Of a stretch of DNA of 64,000 nt, positions 34,901-44,665 are shown piece after piece. Source of the DNA: a virus. The notes below the pieces were generated by a model, which was given only the letters and a program-made list of their open reading frames with translations, did no database searches and had not been told where the DNA came from. The stretch is from positions 1-64,000 of the IMG/VR virus record IMGVR_UViG_3300025652_000043, one strand, 5' to 3'. The translations under genes and the position numbers were made by a program. The first letter of the stretch is position 1; the number at the start of each line of letters is the position of its first letter.

Positions 34901-36526
34901 TTAGAATAATGAACCACCTTGACCTTGTGGCATAGGTGGATTTTTCTCCATGAGTGTAGTAATAGTGCACTCTGTAGTTAACAGCATACCTGCTGCTGAA
35001 GCTGCATTTTCCAATGCAATTCTAGTTACCTTTACAGGGTCTATAATTCCAGCCTCTATCATATCAGCTTCATAAGAATTATTCCTTGCATTAAAACCAG
35101 AATTTTTCTTTCTTGATTTTAATACATTAGCAATAACTACAGAACCTTCTGCTCCTGCATTCTCTGCTATACATCTAATAGGGCTTTCAACAGCTTTTAG
35201 CACTAACTGTGCTCCAAGCAATAGAGTGCCTGTTAGAGGACTTAAATCAACTTTGGCTCTAGCTTGTAAATAAGCTACACCACCACCAGAAACAATACCC
35301 TCTTCTAAAGCAGCCTTAGTTGCATTTTTAGAATCTTCTACTCTGTCCATTTTCTCTTTCATTTCAGTCTCAGTAGGTGCTCCTACATAAATTACTCCTA
35401 CACCACCTTTAAGAGAAGCTATTCTTTTTTTAAAGTCATTGGTTTCATAGTCATTTTCTGCACTTACCATTAAAGATTCAATTTCTTCTACTCTAAAGTT
35501 AATAATTTCAGGTTCACCTTTACCTCCTATTAAAATAGTGTCATGAAAATCAATCCTAACAGAGTCACATTTTCCAAAATCATCAGAAGTTACTTTATTC
35601 AAGTATTTACCTCTTTCTTTTGATACAATTTTACCTCCTAAAACAGTTTGAATATCTTCTAAATAGGCTTTTCTTCTTTCTCCAAATGCAGGTGGCTTTA
35701 CTATAGCTACTTTCATTTGTCCTTCATAAGCATTAACCACTAAAGTTTCTAATGCTTGTCCTTCTACATCTCCTATAATCAACAAGGATTTTCCTTGTCC
35801 TATAGACTTATCTAAAATGTTTTTTAAAGGTGTACCAAAACTATTAAGTTTATCTTCACACATAAGTACATATACATCTTCAAGGTGTACTTCACCTTTC
35901 TTTTTGTCATTGACAAAATAAGGAGAGATGTATCCTGAACCAAATTTCATACCTTCAGCAAGGTCTACATGAGTTGTAGTATCTTTAGATTGTTCTACAG
36001 ATATAACACCTTCTTTACCTACTTTGGCATAAGCCATACCAACTAATTCTCCTATTTCTTCATCATTATTAGAAGAAATAAAAGCAATTTGATTTAGTTC
36101 TTCATCTTCATTTCCTATTTCTACTGATAGTTTTTTAAGCTCATCAATAAGAAGTTCAGCTCCAATTTTAATACCTCTCTGTACTGCTACAGGGTTATGT
36201 CCATTAGAAATTAACCTCATACCTAGCTTAATAAGGGATTGAGTAAGTACTGAAGCAGTAGTAGTTCCATCTCCTGCTTTTTCATTAGTTTTAGATGCTG
36301 CAGCTTTTACAAATTGTGCACCCATATTTTGTAATCTATTAGGGAGTACAACCTCTCTAGCTACAGAAATACCATCTTTAGTAATTCCTGGATCACCAAA
36401 AGCTCTTTCAATCATTACATTTCTACCTTGTGGTCCTAAAGTCACTTTTACTGCATTTGCTAGGGCATCAACCCCTTTTTTCAATTGCTTCTTGGCTTTT
36501 TGTCCATGTACAATTTTTTTACTCAT
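34901..36526 (-). CDS. groL: Chaperonin GroEL
   Basis: VTLGPQGRNV, ITKDGISVA, AGDGTTTA, EEGIVSGGG and GIIDPVKVTRIALENAAS. Confidence 0.97.
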   Translation of the reverse strand: MSKKIVHGQKAKKQLKKGVDALANAVKVTLGPQGRNVMIERAFGDPGITKDGISVAREVVLPNRLQNMGAQFVKAAASKTNEKAGDGTTTASVLTQSLIKLGMRLISNGHNPVAVQRGIKIGAELLIDELKKLSVEIGNEDEELNQIAFISSNNDEEIGELVGMAYAKVGKEGVISVEQSKDTTTHVDLAEGMKFGSGYISPYFVNDKKKGEVHLEDVYVLMCEDKLNSFGTPLKNILDKSIGQGKSLLIIGDVEGQALETLVVNAYEGQMKVAIVKPPAFGERRKAYLEDIQTVLGGKIVSKERGKYLNKVTSDDFGKCDSVRIDFHDTILIGGKGEPEIINFRVEEIESLMVSAENDYETNDFKKRIASLKGGVGVIYVGAPTETEMKEKMDRVEDSKNATKAALEEGIVSGGGVAYLQARAKVDLSPLTGTLLLGAQLVLKAVESPIRCIAENAGAEGSVVIANVLKSRKKNSGFNARNNSYEADMIEAGIIDPVKVTRIALENAASAAGMLLTTECTITTLMEKNPPMPQGQGGSLF

Positions 36527-36791
36527 CTTCTTTTAGTTTACAAATTAAATTATCTTCTGTTGTATGGATGTATTCTACACCCTCAATTGATACTTTAGAA
36601 AAGTCATACTGACCATATACTACTATATCTCCTATAGAGGTATTTATAACCTCTTCACCTATTCCTACTACTTTACCTGCTAACTTTACAGTATCAGGTT
36701 CAACAGTATCAGGAATGATGTAGTCCTCATTTTCAGAGGACTCATCTTCCATTTCTATGAGAATTCTTTTCCCATAAATACTTTCAATCAT
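36519..36791 (-). CDS. groS: Co-chaperonin GroES
   Basis: 90 aa; GKRILIE, IIPD, GKVVGIG..GDIVVY and IEGVEY; adjacent to groEL. Confidence 0.85.
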   Translation of the reverse strand: MIESIYGKRILIEMEDESSENEDYIIPDTVEPDTVKLAGKVVGIGEEVINTSIGDIVVYGQYDFSKVSIEGVEYIHTTEDNLICKLKEDE

Positions 36792-38993: not shown

Positions 38994-39659
38994 TTATATT
39001 GCCTTATTAAAAGCAAATAAATACTCTTTCATTTCTGTAATAGACTTAAATTTAAGCCTTTTCAAGTTACTCTTAAAGCACCTATTCACTATATTATTAG
39101 TAATAATAACATCTACACCTTTATTAGAGTGAGGTAAAATTATCTCTCTATAAAATTTATTGTAAATGGTTTTGTATTGTGCAGAGGTACAAAATTTATT
39201 TGACACAAGAATTGCAAATTTAGAATAGTCTAAGGGTCTACCTTCCCTATCTTCTTCATGCATTTGCTTTGTATATTCAGTCTTAACAACAACAGAAAAT
39301 AATATTTCTATATCTTCTTCAATTTTTCTAAAAAGAATACCTTTCATTGCAAACAATGGCTCTTCCATTGATTTAGTTTTGAAAGCATTAGGAACAGAAT
39401 TTAAGTCTAAAAATTTATAAAGTAATTTATAACCTTTAGCTACATTCTGTCCAGGAAGATAGTTTGGAACTCCATAATGAATTATTTTACCACTGTAGAT
39501 ACCCATATTTATAGTGGATGCCGTAATAGGTATATATTCATTATCAGAGGAAATTCCAACAGCATTGCTATAAAACTCCACTGCTTCTCCTGCTCTTTCT
39601 TGTCTTTTTTTTAAATTAGAAAAATATTTGTCTCTTTTTAATGTTATTAAGTCTATCAT
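38994..39659 (-). CDS. Hypothetical protein, translationally coupled downstream of E1
   Basis: 221 aa; ATGA overlap with the E1 stop. Confidence 0.65.
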   Translation of the reverse strand: MIDLITLKRDKYFSNLKKRQERAGEAVEFYSNAVGISSDNEYIPITASTINMGIYSGKIIHYGVPNYLPGQNVAKGYKLLYKFLDLNSVPNAFKTKSMEEPLFAMKGILFRKIEEDIEILFSVVVKTEYTKQMHEEDREGRPLDYSKFAILVSNKFCTSAQYKTIYNKFYREIILPHSNKGVDVIITNNIVNRCFKSNLKRLKFKSITEMKEYLFAFNKAI

Positions 39660-40330
39660 GATGTCAAATTTATTGGTATAAAATACTCATGATAAAATGG
39701 AACTTGTCTTACTACACTACCTACTTTAATATTAGTCATATGATTGGTAAAAAATCCAACCATTAGACTAGCTATCATAGTAGCTGAGTGAGAAGTCTGT
39801 TTCATAGTACAATTTTCTTCTTCTACCTCTGAATCATCAAATAAATGTTCATCAAAATATTCTCTAGCATTAGTAGGAGTGACACAAAAAATCTGCATTT
39901 GCTCCATTAATAGTCTACCGTCTATTAATATTGCATTAGGATTTTCACTGTTATCTCTCCACCATACCTCAAACATTTCTTTTCTAGCTTTCATATTATC
40001 AAAAGCTGCAAACATGTATTCATGTCCCATTGACTCTAAAGTGAATGGTTCATTAAATATTGTGATATAGCTGTCAGAGTACTCTAACACAATATTTTTC
40101 AAAGCCTCAACTTTGTCTAGTCCTATATGTTTTTTTCCAAATAATTGTCCACCTAAATTGTGCTGTTCAATTATATCAAAATCATATACAACAGGACTAA
40201 ACCCTGCTCTGGCTAATAAGAAAGTTAACCAACTTCCTATTCCTCCTGCACCACCAATTAAGGTATTAATTTCCTCTTCAGGAAACCATGGTGCATCTTT
40301 AAATCTACTTCTTATTTCTGTCTTATTCAT
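39656..40330 (-). CDS. E1-like ubiquitin-activating enzyme (ThiF/MoeB superfamily)
   Basis: IGGAGGIGS nucleotide-binding loop, YDFDIIEQHNLGGQ, K..ALK, FDNMKAR, IDGRL; candidate catalytic Cys in ENCTMKQT. Confidence 0.88.
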   Translation of the reverse strand: MNKTEIRSRFKDAPWFPEEEINTLIGGAGGIGSWLTFLLARAGFSPVVYDFDIIEQHNLGGQLFGKKHIGLDKVEALKNIVLEYSDSYITIFNEPFTLESMGHEYMFAAFDNMKARKEMFEVWWRDNSENPNAILIDGRLLMEQMQIFCVTPTNAREYFDEHLFDDSEVEEENCTMKQTSHSATMIASLMVGFFTNHMTNIKVGSVVRQVPFYHEYFIPINLTS

Positions 40331-41498
40331 GTACTGCTAATTTTGTAAGCATTGCTTCTAAAGACATTTTAAGTGGTGCACATATTGGATACACACCCTC
40401 AAAATCCTCTAATATTGCCATTACTCCTATTGTTGTATCAATAAAAACTTCTGTGTTAATCTCTCCAAATACATCCCAAAACTTTTCAAATAGTGCTGGA
40501 TACATTATTAGAACTTTATTAATATATTCTTCTGAATGTACCATGCCTAAAGTATTTTCAAGTGTATCCTCTAAATCTTCTCTATCATTTATAGGAAGAT
40601 TACCTAGATTTATTACATTTTGTAAAAAACTTTCCATTCTTTTTTCTTTAATTTGTACATCAGGTGTCATGGAAAAAGAGTTGTTCCACATATCAGCATC
40701 TAAATCTTCCATTTCTTTATCCATCATAGCATCATTAGATCTAAACCCATTAAAATTACCTGGACTTACATAAGGATTTACTTTTGAAAATGGATTTAAA
40801 AGCTTTTGACTTTCAAATTGTTTTACATTTTTTTTAAAAACTTTTTGCTTTAAATTAGAAGCATTAATAATCTCTAAAGTTCTATCAGCAAAATCTTTAG
40901 GAACTTTAACAAATGTCTTAGGTTCACTAATTTTACAATCAAAATGAAACATAACTTGTCTTTCTTTTTTCAAAGTTAAATCCCATGGTTGTCCTGCTTC
41001 ATCTTTACATTCATAAGCTTTTATAGTACCTCTAAAAGCAACTTTTGCTACTTTCTCTCCTCTATTATTCACTACTAATGATAGATAATAATTGTGAAAT
41101 TCAGTATTATCATCTAATTCATCCATATCAGTTCCAGAAAAATAACTTTTCATATTATGATGGGAGTGAATCATTCCAATTTTCCAAGCTAAAGTTTCAG
41201 GATTATCCATTCTATATGAAATAAAATTTTCTCCTAATTCATATCCTGTTGCACCTGTAGTACCTTTATCCATAGGGTATACATCTTGTACAACAAGTTT
41301 CATCTTACTAAAATTGGTTATACTACCCTCTACAGTATAAAATAAAACTCCTGACCATTCTACTTTATTAATTTTCTGGCATAAATAGTCTATTTTTTCT
41401 TGTACTTTCTTTGGTATTTTCAATGGTATCAAGTTGTTCAATAATATATCTTCTAATTCTACTTTTTTGAATTTTTGATTCAATTCTTTTTGTGACAT
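40323..41498 (-). CDS. JAB/MPN+ (JAMM) metallopeptidase
   Basis: Catalytic Glu in KVEWSG plus IHSHHNMKSYFSGTD (HxH-x7-S-x2-D JAMM motif). Confidence 0.88.
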   Translation of the reverse strand: MSQKELNQKFKKVELEDILLNNLIPLKIPKKVQEKIDYLCQKINKVEWSGVLFYTVEGSITNFSKMKLVVQDVYPMDKGTTGATGYELGENFISYRMDNPETLAWKIGMIHSHHNMKSYFSGTDMDELDDNTEFHNYYLSLVVNNRGEKVAKVAFRGTIKAYECKDEAGQPWDLTLKKERQVMFHFDCKISEPKTFVKVPKDFADRTLEIINASNLKQKVFKKNVKQFESQKLLNPFSKVNPYVSPGNFNGFRSNDAMMDKEMEDLDADMWNNSFSMTPDVQIKEKRMESFLQNVINLGNLPINDREDLEDTLENTLGMVHSEEYINKVLIMYPALFEKFWDVFGEINTEVFIDTTIGVMAILEDFEGVYPICAPLKMSLEAMLTKLAVHE

Positions 41499-42540
41499 AA
41501 TCTTTTATTGTTTTAGTTATGAAGAAAGGTTTAACTGTTTCTTCATTTGGAATTACTTTAAATTTTTTTATTTCTCCTTTAAATATGAAATCAAAATTTC
41601 TATATTCTTCTTCTTCAGACATGTAATAAGAAAGGTCTTTAGGTATATTTCTATAAGTATAGTAATTACCTTTACTGTCTTTTTGTGCAATATGATCAGG
41701 TGGATAATCACCATTATGGTCATATATTTTAAGATACTCTTCAAAAGCAGTATCTTGAGCTATTTTAACATTATCTCTTGTGATTATAAAGTTAATATTA
41801 GATGTTCCTTTCTTTTCAATAAGGTCTATATAATATTTTCTTATATGTTGTGGAGAAACATTTCTACATTCTCCTCCACCTATTACATTAGCAATTTTTA
41901 TATGTGGTGTACCTTCTAAAGATTCCCAATTTAAATACTCTTCTAATTGCATTAGAAATAATTTAAATATGTCTGGTTTAAAACCAGAAGACAACATTGT
42001 TAATACTTGTCTAATTTCACTTGTACCTAAACAAAATGAATTAAATGTTAATCCACTCTTACCTTCTAAAGGAAAGTAACTTTTATAGTTTCTTGATGGT
42101 AAATGGCTGTGCTGATAAGAAGAAAATATTTCTCCTTCTGTAGCTGTCATTCTTTTACCTTGAAAACTATGAAAAGTAAATCCGTTATTATGACTATAAG
42201 GTAAAAGCTTAATATATAAATCAACAATTTTATGTCTCATTCCAGGAGAATTAGTAATATTAATCTCAGGAAAATATAAAATAAAATCTAAAGTAAAATA
42301 CCTTTCTTTGTCAACTATTAAACCCTCATTTGCATTGACTTTTTTATTGTACCTTAACAAGATATCCCATTTTTCAGGATATACAGCATCTAAACAAGAT
42401 GCTATTGAGTCAATTTTCTCATTGACTCCTTTATAATTTAAACTAAGTTTACCATATTTCTCTATGGCTTTAACAGACCTAATCTTTTTCTCAATAGAAG
42501 ACCTGTTAAATGCTTCTATATAAATATCTTTTCTGTTCAT
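41368..42540 (-). CDS. Putative E2-like ubiquitin-conjugating protein
   Basis: YQHSHLPS...FCLGT resembles the E2 HPN/HPH...CL core, followed by helix and WESLEGTPH; located between Ubl and JAB. Confidence 0.6.
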   Translation of the reverse strand: MNRKDIYIEAFNRSSIEKKIRSVKAIEKYGKLSLNYKGVNEKIDSIASCLDAVYPEKWDILLRYNKKVNANEGLIVDKERYFTLDFILYFPEINITNSPGMRHKIVDLYIKLLPYSHNNGFTFHSFQGKRMTATEGEIFSSYQHSHLPSRNYKSYFPLEGKSGLTFNSFCLGTSEIRQVLTMLSSGFKPDIFKLFLMQLEEYLNWESLEGTPHIKIANVIGGGECRNVSPQHIRKYYIDLIEKKGTSNINFIITRDNVKIAQDTAFEEYLKIYDHNGDYPPDHIAQKDSKGNYYTYRNIPKDLSYYMSEEEEYRNFDFIFKGEIKKFKVIPNEETVKPFFITKTIKDYVTKRIESKIQKSRIRRYIIEQLDTIENTKESTRKNRLFMPEN

Positions 42541-42556
42541 TTTTTTATTTTAAATA

Positions 42557-42587
42557 AAAAGCCAAAGACACTATATCTTTGGCTTTT
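42557..42587 (-). terminator. Intrinsic terminator/attenuator between the Ubl gene and the E2 gene
   Basis: AAAAGCCAAAGA-loop-TCTTTGGCTTTT, 12-bp inverted repeat. Confidence 0.75.
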
Positions 42588-42604
42588 ATGAGTTATAAAT
42601 ATTT

Positions 42605-43585
42605 CTATCTAACATCATTAAATTGACTTCTCATGTCTTGCAACTTTTGATTCAATTCATTTTGTTTTTTCTCTTCAGCTTCAGCTTTTTTTCTTTCTTC
42701 TTTTTCAGCTTTAGCTTTTAATTCAGCCTCCTCTTTAGCTAAAGCTTCTTTTAAAGCTATTGCAGCTTTTTCTTTAATCTTTTTAGCTTTCTTAGCTTCT
42801 TTTGCTAACTGTTTGGTCCAAATTTTAGTAGCCTTATTAAGCTTTTTTTCTAGTCTTTTAGTAATAGCTTCTATATCTTCATGTAAGTCTTCATCTAACT
42901 CACTAAAATTAACTACTCTAAGTAAAGAAATTGCATCAACTAAAGAGTCTAAACTAATATGAGAATTATCTTTAAAATGAGCTAAATTAACCTCCTTCTC
43001 TTCAGTTGTAGAAATTTTTTGAGCATTTTCCTTTACAGACTTAACAATATTAACAACTTTTTGAGCTTTTTCAATAATATTATTAATCCTAGTTTCTTCA
43101 ATATCATCTTTTTTAGGCTTTTCAGCTTTCACCTTTTTAACAGGTGTTTTCTTTACTTTTGGTGTAACTGATGTCATACCTAAATCTTCTAAAGCTGGTA
43201 TTGTACCAGTATAGTTGCTTAATAATGCTCTTAAGATTTCTGTACCTTTAATGGTGTAATTTTTACCACCTCCATTAAAGTAGTCTTTAGCAGTTCCATC
43301 ACCAGCCACAAGCTCTTTAATTGTAGCCCTAAGTTGCTTATAACTATAAGCTGATACATCTGCACCAGCTTTAGTTTTTTTGTTCATTAGAAATAAGGTA
43401 AAACCTTCAGTAGGTAATACAGCTCCATCAGCTTCTAATGTTAACTTATTCTCTCCAATAACAGCTTTCATCTTGTTATAAGAAACATTATTTGCATCTA
43501 AATCATTTTGTAACTCACCCCAATTTTTGGCATCAGTGGTCACTTCTTTTTCACCCATTTGGGTGGAGAAAACTTTTACTATCAT
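42605..43585 (-). CDS. Ubiquitin-like (beta-grasp) domain fused to a helical, Lys-rich coiled-coil region
   Basis: Residues 1-74 show a beta-beta-alpha-beta-beta pattern ending FTLFLMNKKTKAG; operon with E2-like, JAB and E1 genes. Confidence 0.6.
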   Translation of the reverse strand: MIVKVFSTQMGEKEVTTDAKNWGELQNDLDANNVSYNKMKAVIGENKLTLEADGAVLPTEGFTLFLMNKKTKAGADVSAYSYKQLRATIKELVAGDGTAKDYFNGGGKNYTIKGTEILRALLSNYTGTIPALEDLGMTSVTPKVKKTPVKKVKAEKPKKDDIEETRINNIIEKAQKVVNIVKSVKENAQKISTTEEKEVNLAHFKDNSHISLDSLVDAISLLRVVNFSELDEDLHEDIEAITKRLEKKLNKATKIWTKQLAKEAKKAKKIKEKAAIALKEALAKEEAELKAKAEKEERKKAEAEEKKQNELNQKLQDMRSQFNDVR

Positions 43586-43606: not shown

Positions 43607-44665
43607 TTATTTTATTAATTTATTCTCTAACAAGAAGTTTGTTAGAGGTACTTTACCTTTATTTTTTATAAGGTCTGCAGGATCAGAAATTTTATCTCTT
43701 AATAGACTTGTTTTAAGATGAATACCCCTTGATTTTTTAGGGTAAACACTATTAATTTTATCTACTAATTTTTCTGAAGCAATTATTCCTGCTCTATCAT
43801 TATCAAAAAATACTATAATCTCCTTAAATCTCTCTAGGAGTGGATACAATATTTCATCATTTGGGTACATTCCTTCATTTTGAAAAGCTATAACATTTAA
43901 TCCTTGATTTTTAAGAATTCTCCAATCCTTATAAGATTTAGTTATTATTAATTGCTTTCCTTTTAAGGGTAAATTATTTAGTCCCCAAATATCATTTGCA
44001 CAACAATTTGTAGCCCATTTACCTTTTCCTTTTTTATCAGGTGTATATATTTTAACTCTAGGATTAAAATTACCCACTAGATAAGACCTAGTTTGAGGTC
44101 TTATTACTACATGAGACCTTAATCTTTTAGAAAAAACTTTATACCAAATTATAGGGAAGACATTATCTTCTATAAGGTCACTCCTACTAATTTCTAAAGG
44201 AGACCAGAAATCCTTATCTCCAAGAGAGTTAAACATTCTGACTTTAAATGGCATTTCATGTGAGATTTTCTTTTTACTTTTTACTTGAATAATCTCTTTC
44301 TTTTTATTGGCAACATAATCAGAGTCATCATGATGACCTGCTAATAAATTTAGTTTAAAATGGTCATTAACTATTTCTAAAGATTTATAAAAAGATACTT
44401 CAAAATGGTCTTGTACCATATTAAAACAATCTCTATGTTTTCTTTTTTGAATAGGTTCTGCCCAATCTATAAACCAAAAAGTATTTTTATACCATTCAAA
44501 ATAGCAATCAGGTAGGTTATCTTTTCTAAAAGGAGAATGAACATATTGATGTTCTGTAGGCATATAACCTAATATCATTTTAAAAATGTCTTGTTGTGAA
44601 ATTTTAGCTAATATATCCTCTTTAGATATATAAACTCTTGCTTCTCTATAACCATATCCACCCAT
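43607..44665 (-). CDS. DNA primase (TOPRIM)
   Basis: SPFRKDNLPDC, LIITKSYKD, AFQNEG, FFDNDRAG and SDPAD. Confidence 0.85.
   Translation of the reverse strand: MGGYGYREARVYISKEDILAKISQQDIFKMILGYMPTEHQYVHSPFRKDNLPDCYFEWYKNTFWFIDWAEPIQKRKHRDCFNMVQDHFEVSFYKSLEIVNDHFKLNLLAGHHDDSDYVANKKKEIIQVKSKKKISHEMPFKVRMFNSLGDKDFWSPLEISRSDLIEDNVFPIIWYKVFSKRLRSHVVIRPQTRSYLVGNFNPRVKIYTPDKKGKGKWATNCCANDIWGLNNLPLKGKQLIITKSYKDWRILKNQGLNVIAFQNEGMYPNDEILYPLLERFKEIIVFFDNDRAGIIASEKLVDKINSVYPKKSRGIHLKTSLLRDKISDPADLIKNKGKVPLTNFLLENKLIK

Follow-up and report, generated by a model that had tools for sequence, protein, structure and literature searches.

A putative virus-encoded ubiquitin-like conjugation cassette in the replication module of FpV4-like and crAss001-like phages

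The IMG/VR virus record IMGVR_UViG_3300025652_000043, of which the 64,000-nt stretch from position 1 to 64,000 was analysed (the window), carries four co-oriented open reading frames (ORFs) on the minus strand at 39656-43585, downstream of a DNA primase gene. They encode the precursor of a ubiquitin-like protein (Ubl), an E2-like protein, a JAB/JAMM metallopeptidase and a minimal E1-like enzyme of the ThiF family, and are collectively designated here as the cassette. With moderate confidence, we interpret the cassette as a ubiquitin-like conjugation pathway that belongs to the virus and is a fixed part of its replication module. The lineage that possesses the cassette is large, consists of phages of about 90-100 kb and includes FpV4-like and crAss001-like phages, and it is probable that the phage attaches a modifier of its own to proteins. 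The record that contains the window is linear, 83 kb long and estimated to be 88% complete, and the public sequencing runs containing half or more of the words sampled from the stretch are freshwater metagenomes.

In prokaryotes, Ubl conjugation has been characterised as a cellular function and as bacterial anti-phage defence, exemplified by Bil, type II CBASS and Bub in the available text of PMC11601596. Here, the same kind of kit would belong to a virus, and it keeps a fixed place next to the primase gene throughout a very large lineage of phages, crAss001-type gut phages among them. We found no description of the cassette in phages in openly available full-text papers; supplementary tables may list ThiF or MPN as conserved genes of crAss-like phages. 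The terms ThiF, ubiquitin and metalloprotease do not appear in the main texts of Yutin et al. 2021 (PMC7886860) and Shkoporov et al. 2018 (PMC6235969), and the accessible part of a 2026 preprint (10.64898/2026.03.05.709809) mentions a phage protein family resembling UBA5 and nothing further on the cassette.

Gene layout and predicted products of the cassette

A sequence-only reading of the window had described four contiguous co-oriented genes, and all four were found on the minus strand at the positions listed below. They are indeed adjacent and co-oriented, but they are not contiguous in the strict sense: the E2-like and JAB genes overlap by 131 nt out of frame, and the Ubl gene is followed by a 64-nt gap containing a hairpin. 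The motifs quoted in that reading, including the Cys codon of the E2-like gene at 42031-42033, were all recovered when their coordinates were recomputed. They exceed what is expected by chance, as the same residues are at least 95% conserved in related phage loci (65 E1, 66 JAB and 67 E2-like sequences, window included) and the Gly of the Ubl tail is found in 72/72 aligned rows. The features of the locus, with the basis of each assignment, are as follows.

43607-44665, minus strand: DNA primase gene (PHROG 'DNA primase', 8.1e-61)
42605-43585, minus strand: Ubl precursor, 326 aa (ORF and translation)
43364-43585, minus strand: predicted beta-grasp domain of the Ubl precursor, residues 1-74, tail KKTKAG (AlphaFold2 model, Foldseek, conservation)
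42605-43363, minus strand: C-terminal extension of the Ubl precursor, residues 75-326 (AlphaFold2 model, conservation pattern)
42549-42587, minus strand: hairpin and U-run, candidate terminator or attenuator (RNA folding)
41368-42540, minus strand: E2-like protein, 390 aa (AlphaFold2 model, VIA-align, conservation)
41368-41498, minus strand: stretch coding for both the E2-like protein and JAB (ORF coordinates)
40323-41498, minus strand: JAB/JAMM metallopeptidase, 391 aa (motif, weak profile matches)
39656-40330, minus strand: minimal E1-like enzyme, ThiF family, 224 aa (Pfam ThiF, conservation)
38994-39659, minus strand: 221-aa protein without a family match, possible fifth partner (synteny)

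The expectation that residues 1-74 of the Ubl precursor adopt a beta-grasp fold was borne out by structure prediction. The AlphaFold2 model of the 326-residue precursor has a mean predicted local distance difference test (pLDDT) score of 80.5 and shows, in its Ubl domain, the element order b-b-a-b-b, with strands at 2-7, 11-16, 39-43 and 62-68 and a helix at 22-31. The pLDDT of this domain is 86-95 in ten-residue blocks up to residue 70, and the tail of residues 71-74 falls below 50. When the whole 326-residue model was used as the query, the top rows of a Foldseek search against the PDB were ubiquitin, RUB1, NEDD8, SUMO and ISG15, with template modelling (TM) scores by target of 0.57-0.69 and a probability of 1.00.

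The tail of the Ubl domain reads K69-K70-T71-K72-A73-G74, and Gly74 (codon 43364-43366) is the predicted site of both processing and activation. Among 25 homologues obtained by a word-indexed search, residues 1-74 are almost invariant up to K-T-K-A-G, beyond which conservation drops sharply. In an alignment of 72 rows, composed of the window sequence and 71 distinct ORFs of related viral contigs, an equivalent of Gly74 occurs in every row within the motif K-[TVN]-K-[SA]-G, and at least one residue follows the Gly in every form. This includes the stand-alone Ubl ORFs of 75-89 aa (13 of the 72 rows), all of which have 1-6 residues beyond the Gly. Because all forms carry residues after the Gly, every one of them would need trimming, as ubiquitin precursors do, and we regard them all as capped precursors like those of ubiquitin and most eukaryotic Ubls, with cleavage predicted at the Gly.

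The remainder of the precursor comprises a conserved small helical region at about 80-125, a Lys-rich linker of low confidence and a helix at 232-321 ending in F-x-D-V. This extension differs or is missing in relatives, whose Ubl ORFs range from 75 to 369 aa, and the long C-terminal part of the precursor in the window is an optional passenger. In one related locus (L063, 4760-5751), two tandem Ubl-precursor genes, encoding 148 and 157 aa, lie ahead of the E2-like gene.

The E2-like protein matched no Pfam, NCBIfam or PADLOC family at E ≤ 1 when searched as a single sequence, and PHROGs returned only a family without an assigned function. A profile of 13 homologues searched against 1.84 billion representatives revealed a large family: 3177 proteins reached E ≤ 0.001, and 2891 reached E ≤ 1e-10. 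When 150 of the sequences were aligned, Ser145, His146, Cys170, Gly172, Glu206 and Ser207 proved invariant, and Asn97, Gly128, Arg130, Glu137, Tyr142, His144, Phe169, Gly210 and Pro212 nearly invariant. H144-S145-H146 is encoded at 42103-42111 and Cys170 at 42031-42033. The AlphaFold2 model built from the same alignment (pLDDT 91.6, predicted TM score 0.86) displays a UBC/UEV-like domain at about 13-225, followed by a C-terminal domain without a recognised fold. The UBC/UEV-like domain has N-terminal helices, including one at 39-53, then a strand meander (58-64, 82-96, 102-117 and 120-130), and then helices at 175-184 and 189-203. A long loop between strand 4 and these helices bears both H-S-H, ten residues past the strand, and Cys170, immediately ahead of helix 175-184.

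The model was compared with 48,161 chains by VIA-align, a search that does not depend on Foldseek, in which the first match was the UEV domain of Tsg101 (Z 5.6, 137 residues, root-mean-square deviation (rmsd) 4.2) and at least 37 of the 50 rows listed name a UBC/E2, UEV or RWD protein. An additional row was chain 9eav_D of the Citrobacter Bub complex (Z 4.6, 118 residues, rmsd 3.9). A second structural look gave a similar picture: Tsg101 UEV aligned with Z 5.4-6.0 over 129-138 of about 140 residues (rmsd 3.7-4.3), and 45 of the 50 rows name UEV, UBC, RWD, UFC1, Atg3 or Cap2. Other matches were Ubc9 and UbcH5 (Z 4.0-4.4), the E2 domain of Cap2 (7tqd_B, Z 3.9) and Atg3 (Z 3.3), and the alignments span nearly the whole target domain. 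The lack of a UBC fold in 41368-42540 would have refuted the earlier reading, and the modelling brought no such refutation: the model is confident, and its N-terminal half aligns chiefly to UEV, UBC and RWD domains at Z 4-6, moderate support given that these values lie below 8. Eleven matches at E ≤ 0.001 were found in a viral structure library, all of them uncharacterized proteins of crAss-like or podovirus contigs or nameless entries. The ESM Atlas was uninformative for this domain, its own model being poor (pLDDT 0.29).

We also considered a tail resembling a beta-clamp-binding motif, Q-x-x-L-F, at the C-terminus of the E2-like protein. It was rejected as a feature of the family, being present in 9 of 150 family members and in 1 of 67 proteins from viral loci; the protein of the window has K in place of its Q.

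The E1-like enzyme contains GGAGGIG at residues 26-32 as well as Cys149 and Cys174, the latter encoded at 39809-39811. It scores 54.8 bits against Pfam ThiF PF00899 (cut-off 28.1, E 9.9e-15, residues 22-191), which places it in the ThiF family. A profile of 56 relatives matches UBA5 (4e-13), MccB (6.8e-13), TcdA, Uba1, NAE1, MoeB and ThiF, over a range of 4e-13 to 2e-10, and aligns the stretch 'saFDNmkaR' with 'scvDNfeaR' of UBA5. R9, G27, G29, G30, D50, K73, D111-N112, R116 and Cys174 are conserved, the ATP-site residues at 90% or more; in E1-like enzymes, the Gly-rich nucleotide loop, the acidic residue after strand 2, the Lys and the Asp of D-N serve in Mg-ATP binding. Cys174 is retained in at least 95% of 65 sequences and at least 90% of 56, and it is a candidate for the catalytic Cys that would form a thioester with the Ubl. 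NCBIfam ThiF and MoeB models score far below their cut-offs, a ThiF model being the best match, and PADLOC 'E1-E2' (Cap2) models match with 3.3e-8 at best. Judged from its sequence, the enzyme is an adenylating core without a ubiquitin-fold domain, a separate Cys domain or a rhodanese domain.

The peptidase has a complete JAMM motif (E47, H111, H113, S121 and D124; E..HSH-x7-S-x2-D), and the earlier description of the JAMM peptidase as intact was upheld by the presence and conservation of these residues; the ATP-site residues of E1 are likewise present and conserved. Among 54 JAB sequences, H111, H113, S121 and D124 are invariant and E47 is conserved in at least 90%, and the C-terminal half is poorly conserved. 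Weak profile matches were obtained with NCBIfam PRTRC_A (8.8e-4) and PADLOC JAB (7.2e-3).

Linkage, distribution and genomic surroundings

Scanning IMG/VR with the E2-like alignment yielded 80 viral loci, the ORFs of which were then classified by iterated hidden Markov model searches. Ubl was found in 78 of these loci, the E2-like protein in 80, JAB in 79 and E1 in 77, counts that do not represent independent events, as the loci were chosen through the E2-like protein and include many close relatives, several of them near-identical. The order Ubl-E2-JAB-E1 on one strand is kept in 70 of the 80. The ten exceptions comprise loci with E1 in two pieces (three), without E1 (two), with JAB in two pieces (one), without Ubl and with JAB in two pieces (one), with Ubl and the E2-like gene only (one), with two Ubl genes and a split JAB (one) and without Ubl (one); in part, genes are missing because the contig stops within the cassette.

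A primase homologue is present in 76 of the 80 loci, and it precedes Ubl in all 40 gene orders printed, mostly directly. Helicase and Sak4 genes lie further upstream, and RusA-like and PD-(D/E)XK nuclease genes downstream, in agreement with the earlier placement of the cassette inside the replication block.

Among cultured and named phages, tblastn detected the E2-like protein in 71 records, of which 29 are of the Flavobacterium FpV4 type, 29 of the Bacteroides crAss type (including crAss001, DAC15, DAC17 and PhiCrAssBcn), ten 'uncultured' and three others; E1 was detected in 74 phage records. In crAss001, the primase gp80 is followed, in this order, by gp79 (Ubl precursor, ...KKIKSG followed by more residues), gp78 (E2-like), gp77 (JAB) and gp76 (E1), and the same four genes are found in the same order in FpV4, the nearest cultured relative. 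Synteny across Crassvirales had been proposed as a check. NCBI taxonomy does not place FpV4 in Crassvirales, but crAss001, a member of Crassvirales, has the cassette and its neighbours in common with the window phage. The suspicion that ThiF and MPN genes were already annotated singly proved correct, as E1 is labelled 'thiamine biosynthesis protein' in FpV4 and 'thiamine biosynthesis protein, ThiF' in crAss001 (gp76), and gp77 of crAss001 is labelled 'metalloprotease domain containing protein'. Cultured phage-host pairs with the cassette are crAss001/Bacteroides intestinalis, DAC15/B. thetaiotaomicron and FpV4/Flavobacterium psychrophilum.

Searching species-representative genomes with an E1 pattern returned 12 contigs of metagenome-assembled genomes (MAGs). 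The full cassette in a phage context was found on six of them, four were too short, one had JAB-E1 only, and the twelfth (L095) gave a weak E1-like match only. Eleven of the 12 contigs bear genes of the same phage replication module and were read as phage contigs or prophages rather than as a cellular version of the cassette. An E2-like peptide pattern identified no relative among five candidate stretches in bacterial genomes; both the E2-like and the E1 patterns are narrow, and absence from cells is thus not implied. Among the MAG contigs L084, L088 and L091, which have the cassette and the replication module, there are contigs from MAGs labelled Nitrososphaerota and Promethearchaeia archaeon, probably through mis-binning. 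One is located at 282-297 kb of a Puia sp. contig of 373 kb and may represent a prophage or a chimera.

The overlap between the E2-like and JAB genes is a recurrent feature. In the window, the first 43 codons of JAB, read in the +1 frame, coincide with the end of the E2-like gene, namely its final 43 codons plus the stop, and the codon of JAB Glu47 (41358-41360) starts 8 nt past the E2-like stop. The comparison was extended to 76 related loci, namely the 80 minus one without a JAB match and three (L004, L069 and L073) without the E-W-S-G pattern. JAB is in the +1 frame relative to the E2-like gene in 71 of them, and the longest JAB ORF overlaps the E2-like gene in 74, with a median of 89 nt. 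The overlap might reflect translational coupling, a fused E2-JAB protein produced by frameshifting, or enforced stoichiometry.

In some relatives, JAB is interrupted exactly at the H-x-H motif, and E1 is interrupted as well; the gaps contain group I introns and LAGLIDADG-like ORFs. The interruptions are located as follows.

L021, 7435-7970
L029, 1224-2188
L063, 7264-8220
L022, 8717-9708
L037, 6592-6873

The Rfam group I intron model RF00028 scored 85.2 and 61.9 bits in L021 and 46.4 bits in L037, the last being below the 50-bit gathering score, and ORFs with LAGLIDADG-like motifs lie within the gaps of L029, L063 and L022. An Rfam scan of whole loci at the gathering threshold missed these introns.

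The 64-nt gap between the Ubl and E2-like genes contains a 14-bp hairpin followed by a U-run. The hairpin has a folding energy of -17.9 kcal/mol (z -4.08), and 2 of 200 shuffles fold at least as well; a simple terminator scan listed no minus-strand site between the two genes. Three metatranscriptome contigs, from two runs of two studies, match the window exactly, and all are within the Ubl gene and upstream of the hairpin (43088-43326, 43400-43550 and 42728-42991), with the reservations that RNA libraries may contain DNA and that contigs cannot rank expression. The remaining pieces from RNA libraries are short, imperfect matches. The position of the hairpin and the Ubl-only RNA contigs give a weak hint that the Ubl message is more abundant than that of the enzymes.

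The place directly after E1, which the 221-aa protein has in the window, is taken by one of its homologues in 49 of the 80 related loci and by gp75 in crAss001. The protein has no PHROG or Pfam match and may be a fifth component. Downstream of the module, a GroES-GroEL pair is encoded at 34901-36791 on the minus strand (PHROG 'chaperonin groEL', 1.9e-150); the flanks fetched with the 80 related loci contained homologues of it in only three cases.

Proposed pathway and its alternatives

The components of the cassette, always found together, fit a cycle of processing, activation and transfer: a Ubl that is capped beyond its invariant Gly, a JAMM peptidase, an E1 competent for ATP and a UBC-like protein with invariant His and Cys residues. 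From these genes and motifs, together with the predicted folds, conservation and synteny, we infer the chemical steps of the cycle and the existence of a protein target. The JAMM peptidase would cut the 326-aa precursor after Gly74 to release a 74-residue beta-grasp modifier, and may additionally strip the modifier from its targets. The minimal ThiF-type E1, probably a homodimer, would then use ATP to adenylate Gly74, and its Cys174 may hold the modifier. From there, the modifier would pass to Cys170 of the E2-like protein, in which His144-Ser145-His146 would stand in place of the classical HPN motif. Finally, the E2-like protein, perhaps via its C-terminal domain, would transfer the modifier to a lysine of a phage or host protein; the earlier reading had suggested host defence and competing phages as possible targets. 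The group I introns that cut JAB and E1 at conserved motifs in relatives were also counted in favor of conjugation.

Several observations weigh against this pathway. The cassette encodes no E3, and its E1 is devoid of the ubiquitin-fold domain and separate Cys domain, with a profile that matches the non-conjugating MccB, TcdA, MoeB and ThiF about as well as UBA5. The Foldseek E-values of the Ubl begin at 3.1e-3 and go upward, short of the 0.001 bar of the tool. JAB is likewise below curated cut-offs in profile searches (Pfam Prok-JAB 20.5 vs 25 bits, E 4.6e-4, residues 107-141 only), and a profile of its 54 relatives matched no solved JAB chain in the PDB, only helical designs on the C-terminal half. 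The interdependence of the 80 loci, described above, also tempers the linkage counts.

For the E2-like protein, the Z values of 4-6 are beneath the caution line of 8 given for the tool, no PDB entry reached E ≤ 0.001 in Foldseek (where Tsg101 UEV, Ubc9 and Cap2 are among the weak rows), and the 150-sequence profile matched no E2 chain among PDB sequences. The best structural matches are the UEV domains of Tsg101 and Vps23, and UEV domains are catalytically dead variants of E2 that have no active-site Cys. The placement of Cys170 at an E2 active site would follow from the order of secondary-structure elements in the model, and the His motif and the Cys are 24 residues apart, farther than the distance of about 8 in classical E2s. 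The E2 fold assignment, made on a predicted structure, is accordingly of moderate strength, consistent in direction and without sequence backing.

Other uses of the same parts have to be weighed. The main rival is sulfur transfer, as Ubl, JAB and a ThiF-type E1 also make up known sulfur-carrier systems (Iyer et al. 2006, PMC1779556, in the available text). A JAB-trimmed, E1-adenylated Ubl could be converted to a thiocarboxylate that gives its sulfur to the modification of tRNA, DNA or a small molecule, in the way of ThiS/MoaD, CysO-Mec and QbsE-QbsD, with the Cys protein relaying a persulfide. MoeB and ThiF are among the matches of the E1 profile, at about 1e-10, the best NCBIfam match is a ThiF model, public records call the enzyme a 'thiamine biosynthesis protein', the record is only 88% complete, and the host could supply the partner enzymes. 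We nevertheless regard sulfur transfer as improbable. The earlier remark that no sulfur-carrier pathway genes are nearby holds for the whole 83-kb record, in which no rhodanese, Aminotran_5 (cysteine desulfurase), ATP_bind_3 (PP-loop ATPase), ThiG, MoaE or ThiS-family match was found by searches that match 11-14 of 14 control genomes. Moreover, the Ubl tail ends in [SA]-G rather than G-G, the NCBIfam ThiF and MoeB scores are far below cut-offs, and the fourth protein, which is always linked, models as UBC/UEV-like and not rhodanese-like. As another alternative, the Ubl or its C-terminal residue might be joined to a non-protein acceptor, such as a nucleotide, a lipid, a cell-wall precursor or DNA, comparable to the reactions of MccB/PaaA and to Atg8 lipidation. 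The E1 profile does match MccB (6.8e-13) and PaaA (1.4e-10) as well as UBA5 (4e-13), Atg3 is among the structural matches of the E2-like protein (Z 3.3), and the cassette sits among DNA replication and recombination genes. We give this possibility little credence, given that MccB and PaaA use short peptides without a beta-grasp or an E2, whereas here the enzymes always have a folded Ubl, its tail conserved, at their side, and that none of the neighbouring genes was recognised as a partner that handles nucleotides or lipids.

The cassette could also serve processing or binding only. The E2-like protein would then be a non-catalytic adaptor of the UEV type, JAB would release the Ubl or its C-terminal partner as proposed for lambda I/K, and E1 would have another substrate. 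A phage Ubl and JAB pair without E1 and E2 has been described for tail assembly (PMC1779556, available text), the Ubl is often fused to varied C-terminal domains, and the UEV domains of Tsg101 and Vps23, which match best, do not perform catalysis. Stand-alone Ubls with 1-6 residues after the Gly, however, have no partner to release, and an E1 with intact ATP-site residues is linked in 77/80 loci. In addition, UEVs have no active-site Cys, whereas Cys170 never varies among the 150 aligned sequences, and neither do His146 and Ser145. On these grounds a role restricted to processing or binding seems unlikely.

Conjugation to protein remains the reading that we favor, and a more specific version of it can be put forward tentatively. 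The cassette may be a vertically inherited core of the crAss-like replication and recombination module rather than an accessory counter-defence, tagging a replication, recombination or host takeover protein with the phages' own modifier by means of a new E2 family and an E1 stripped to its adenylation core. If this version is true, it would be the prokaryotic-virus counterpart of the control of the eukaryotic replisome by ubiquitin and SUMO. If protein conjugation as such is true, it would represent a new layer of phage biology, and the history of the ubiquitin system would gain a minimal E1 and an E2 lineage that is the fourth and highly divergent. Since the cassette is present in cultured phage-host pairs, the question is open to direct testing.

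Comparison with known systems

Parts of the same kind occur in several described systems. The available text of Iyer et al. 2006 (PMC1779556) sets out five types of bacterial operon that combine E1, E2-like, JAB and Ubl components, and none of the five is located in a replication module of phages. The same text provides a phage precedent in its account of the tail proteins I (Ubl) and K (JAB and NlpC/P60) of lambda and T1, in which a Ubl with a conserved C-terminal Gly is fused to a C-terminal domain and JAB is predicted to cut at this Gly. These proteins belong to a tail module without E1 and E2 (PMC1779556), whereas the present set has both and belongs to a replication module.

The PRTRC system resembles the cassette in its small ThiF protein of about 250 aa, its Ubl-sized PRTRC_C (72 aa) and its residence on mobile elements (plasmids and conjugative elements). 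Membership in it was rejected: in NCBIfam searches, PRTRC_A scored 18.9 vs 101.8 bits and PRTRC_ThiF 22.7 vs 144.75, and PRTRC_B and PRTRC_C gave no match. Comparison by hhalign of the phage E2, JAB and Ubl profiles with a 464-aa protein, PRTRC_B and PRTRC_C gave probabilities of less than 2%, a weak test in that the templates were single sequences from one Bacteroidota locus. The PRTRC cassette of Bacteroidota locus L111 (3954-9036) encodes PRTRC_E, PRTRC_C, the 464-aa protein, PRTRC_B and the PRTRC ThiF protein, and a DnaN-like sliding-clamp gene (TIGR00663, 8.5e-37, below the cut-off) lies directly upstream of it.

Type II CBASS and the phage set both combine E1-like, E2-like and JAB activities, which CBASS has in Cap2/Cap3. 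Cap2 is a fusion of E2 and E1 that acts on the C-terminus of a CD-NTase, whereas the phage set has a dedicated Ubl and separate E1 and E2-like proteins, and no match to CD-NTase (SMODS) was found in the phage record. Type I Bub (6E.1; BubAB, BubCD and BubE) is similar in that JAB must free the Ubl, the E1 is small and has no Cys domain, and the Ubl architectures are diverse (PMC11601596, available text). It differs by using oxyester (Ser) intermediates, Ubl-E2 and JAB-E1 fusions and a DUF6527 serine protease (PMC11601596), whereas the phage proteins are separate and have cysteines as candidate nucleophiles; across type I/II Bub, E2-E1 fusions are a further arrangement that the phage set does not share. 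A DUF6527 search of the phage record gave no match, the same search matching 1 of 14 control genomes.

The Bil operons (BilA-BilB-BilC-BilD), which carry out anti-phage ubiquitination in bacteria (Ye et al. 2024, PMC11601596), are the most similar in layout. As described in the available text of that paper, they consist of four separate proteins in the order Ubl, E2, JAB and E1, have no E3 gene and are proposed to pick the target through E2; the same gene order was found in 70 of the 80 phage loci. The E1 of Bil has tandem adenylation domains and a Cys domain (PMC11601596), whereas the phage E1 is a 224-aa protein with one ThiF domain. Set apart by description and not by protein sequences, the two also differ in where they reside: Bil is a bacterial defence, whereas the present cassette is encoded by phages, in their replication module.

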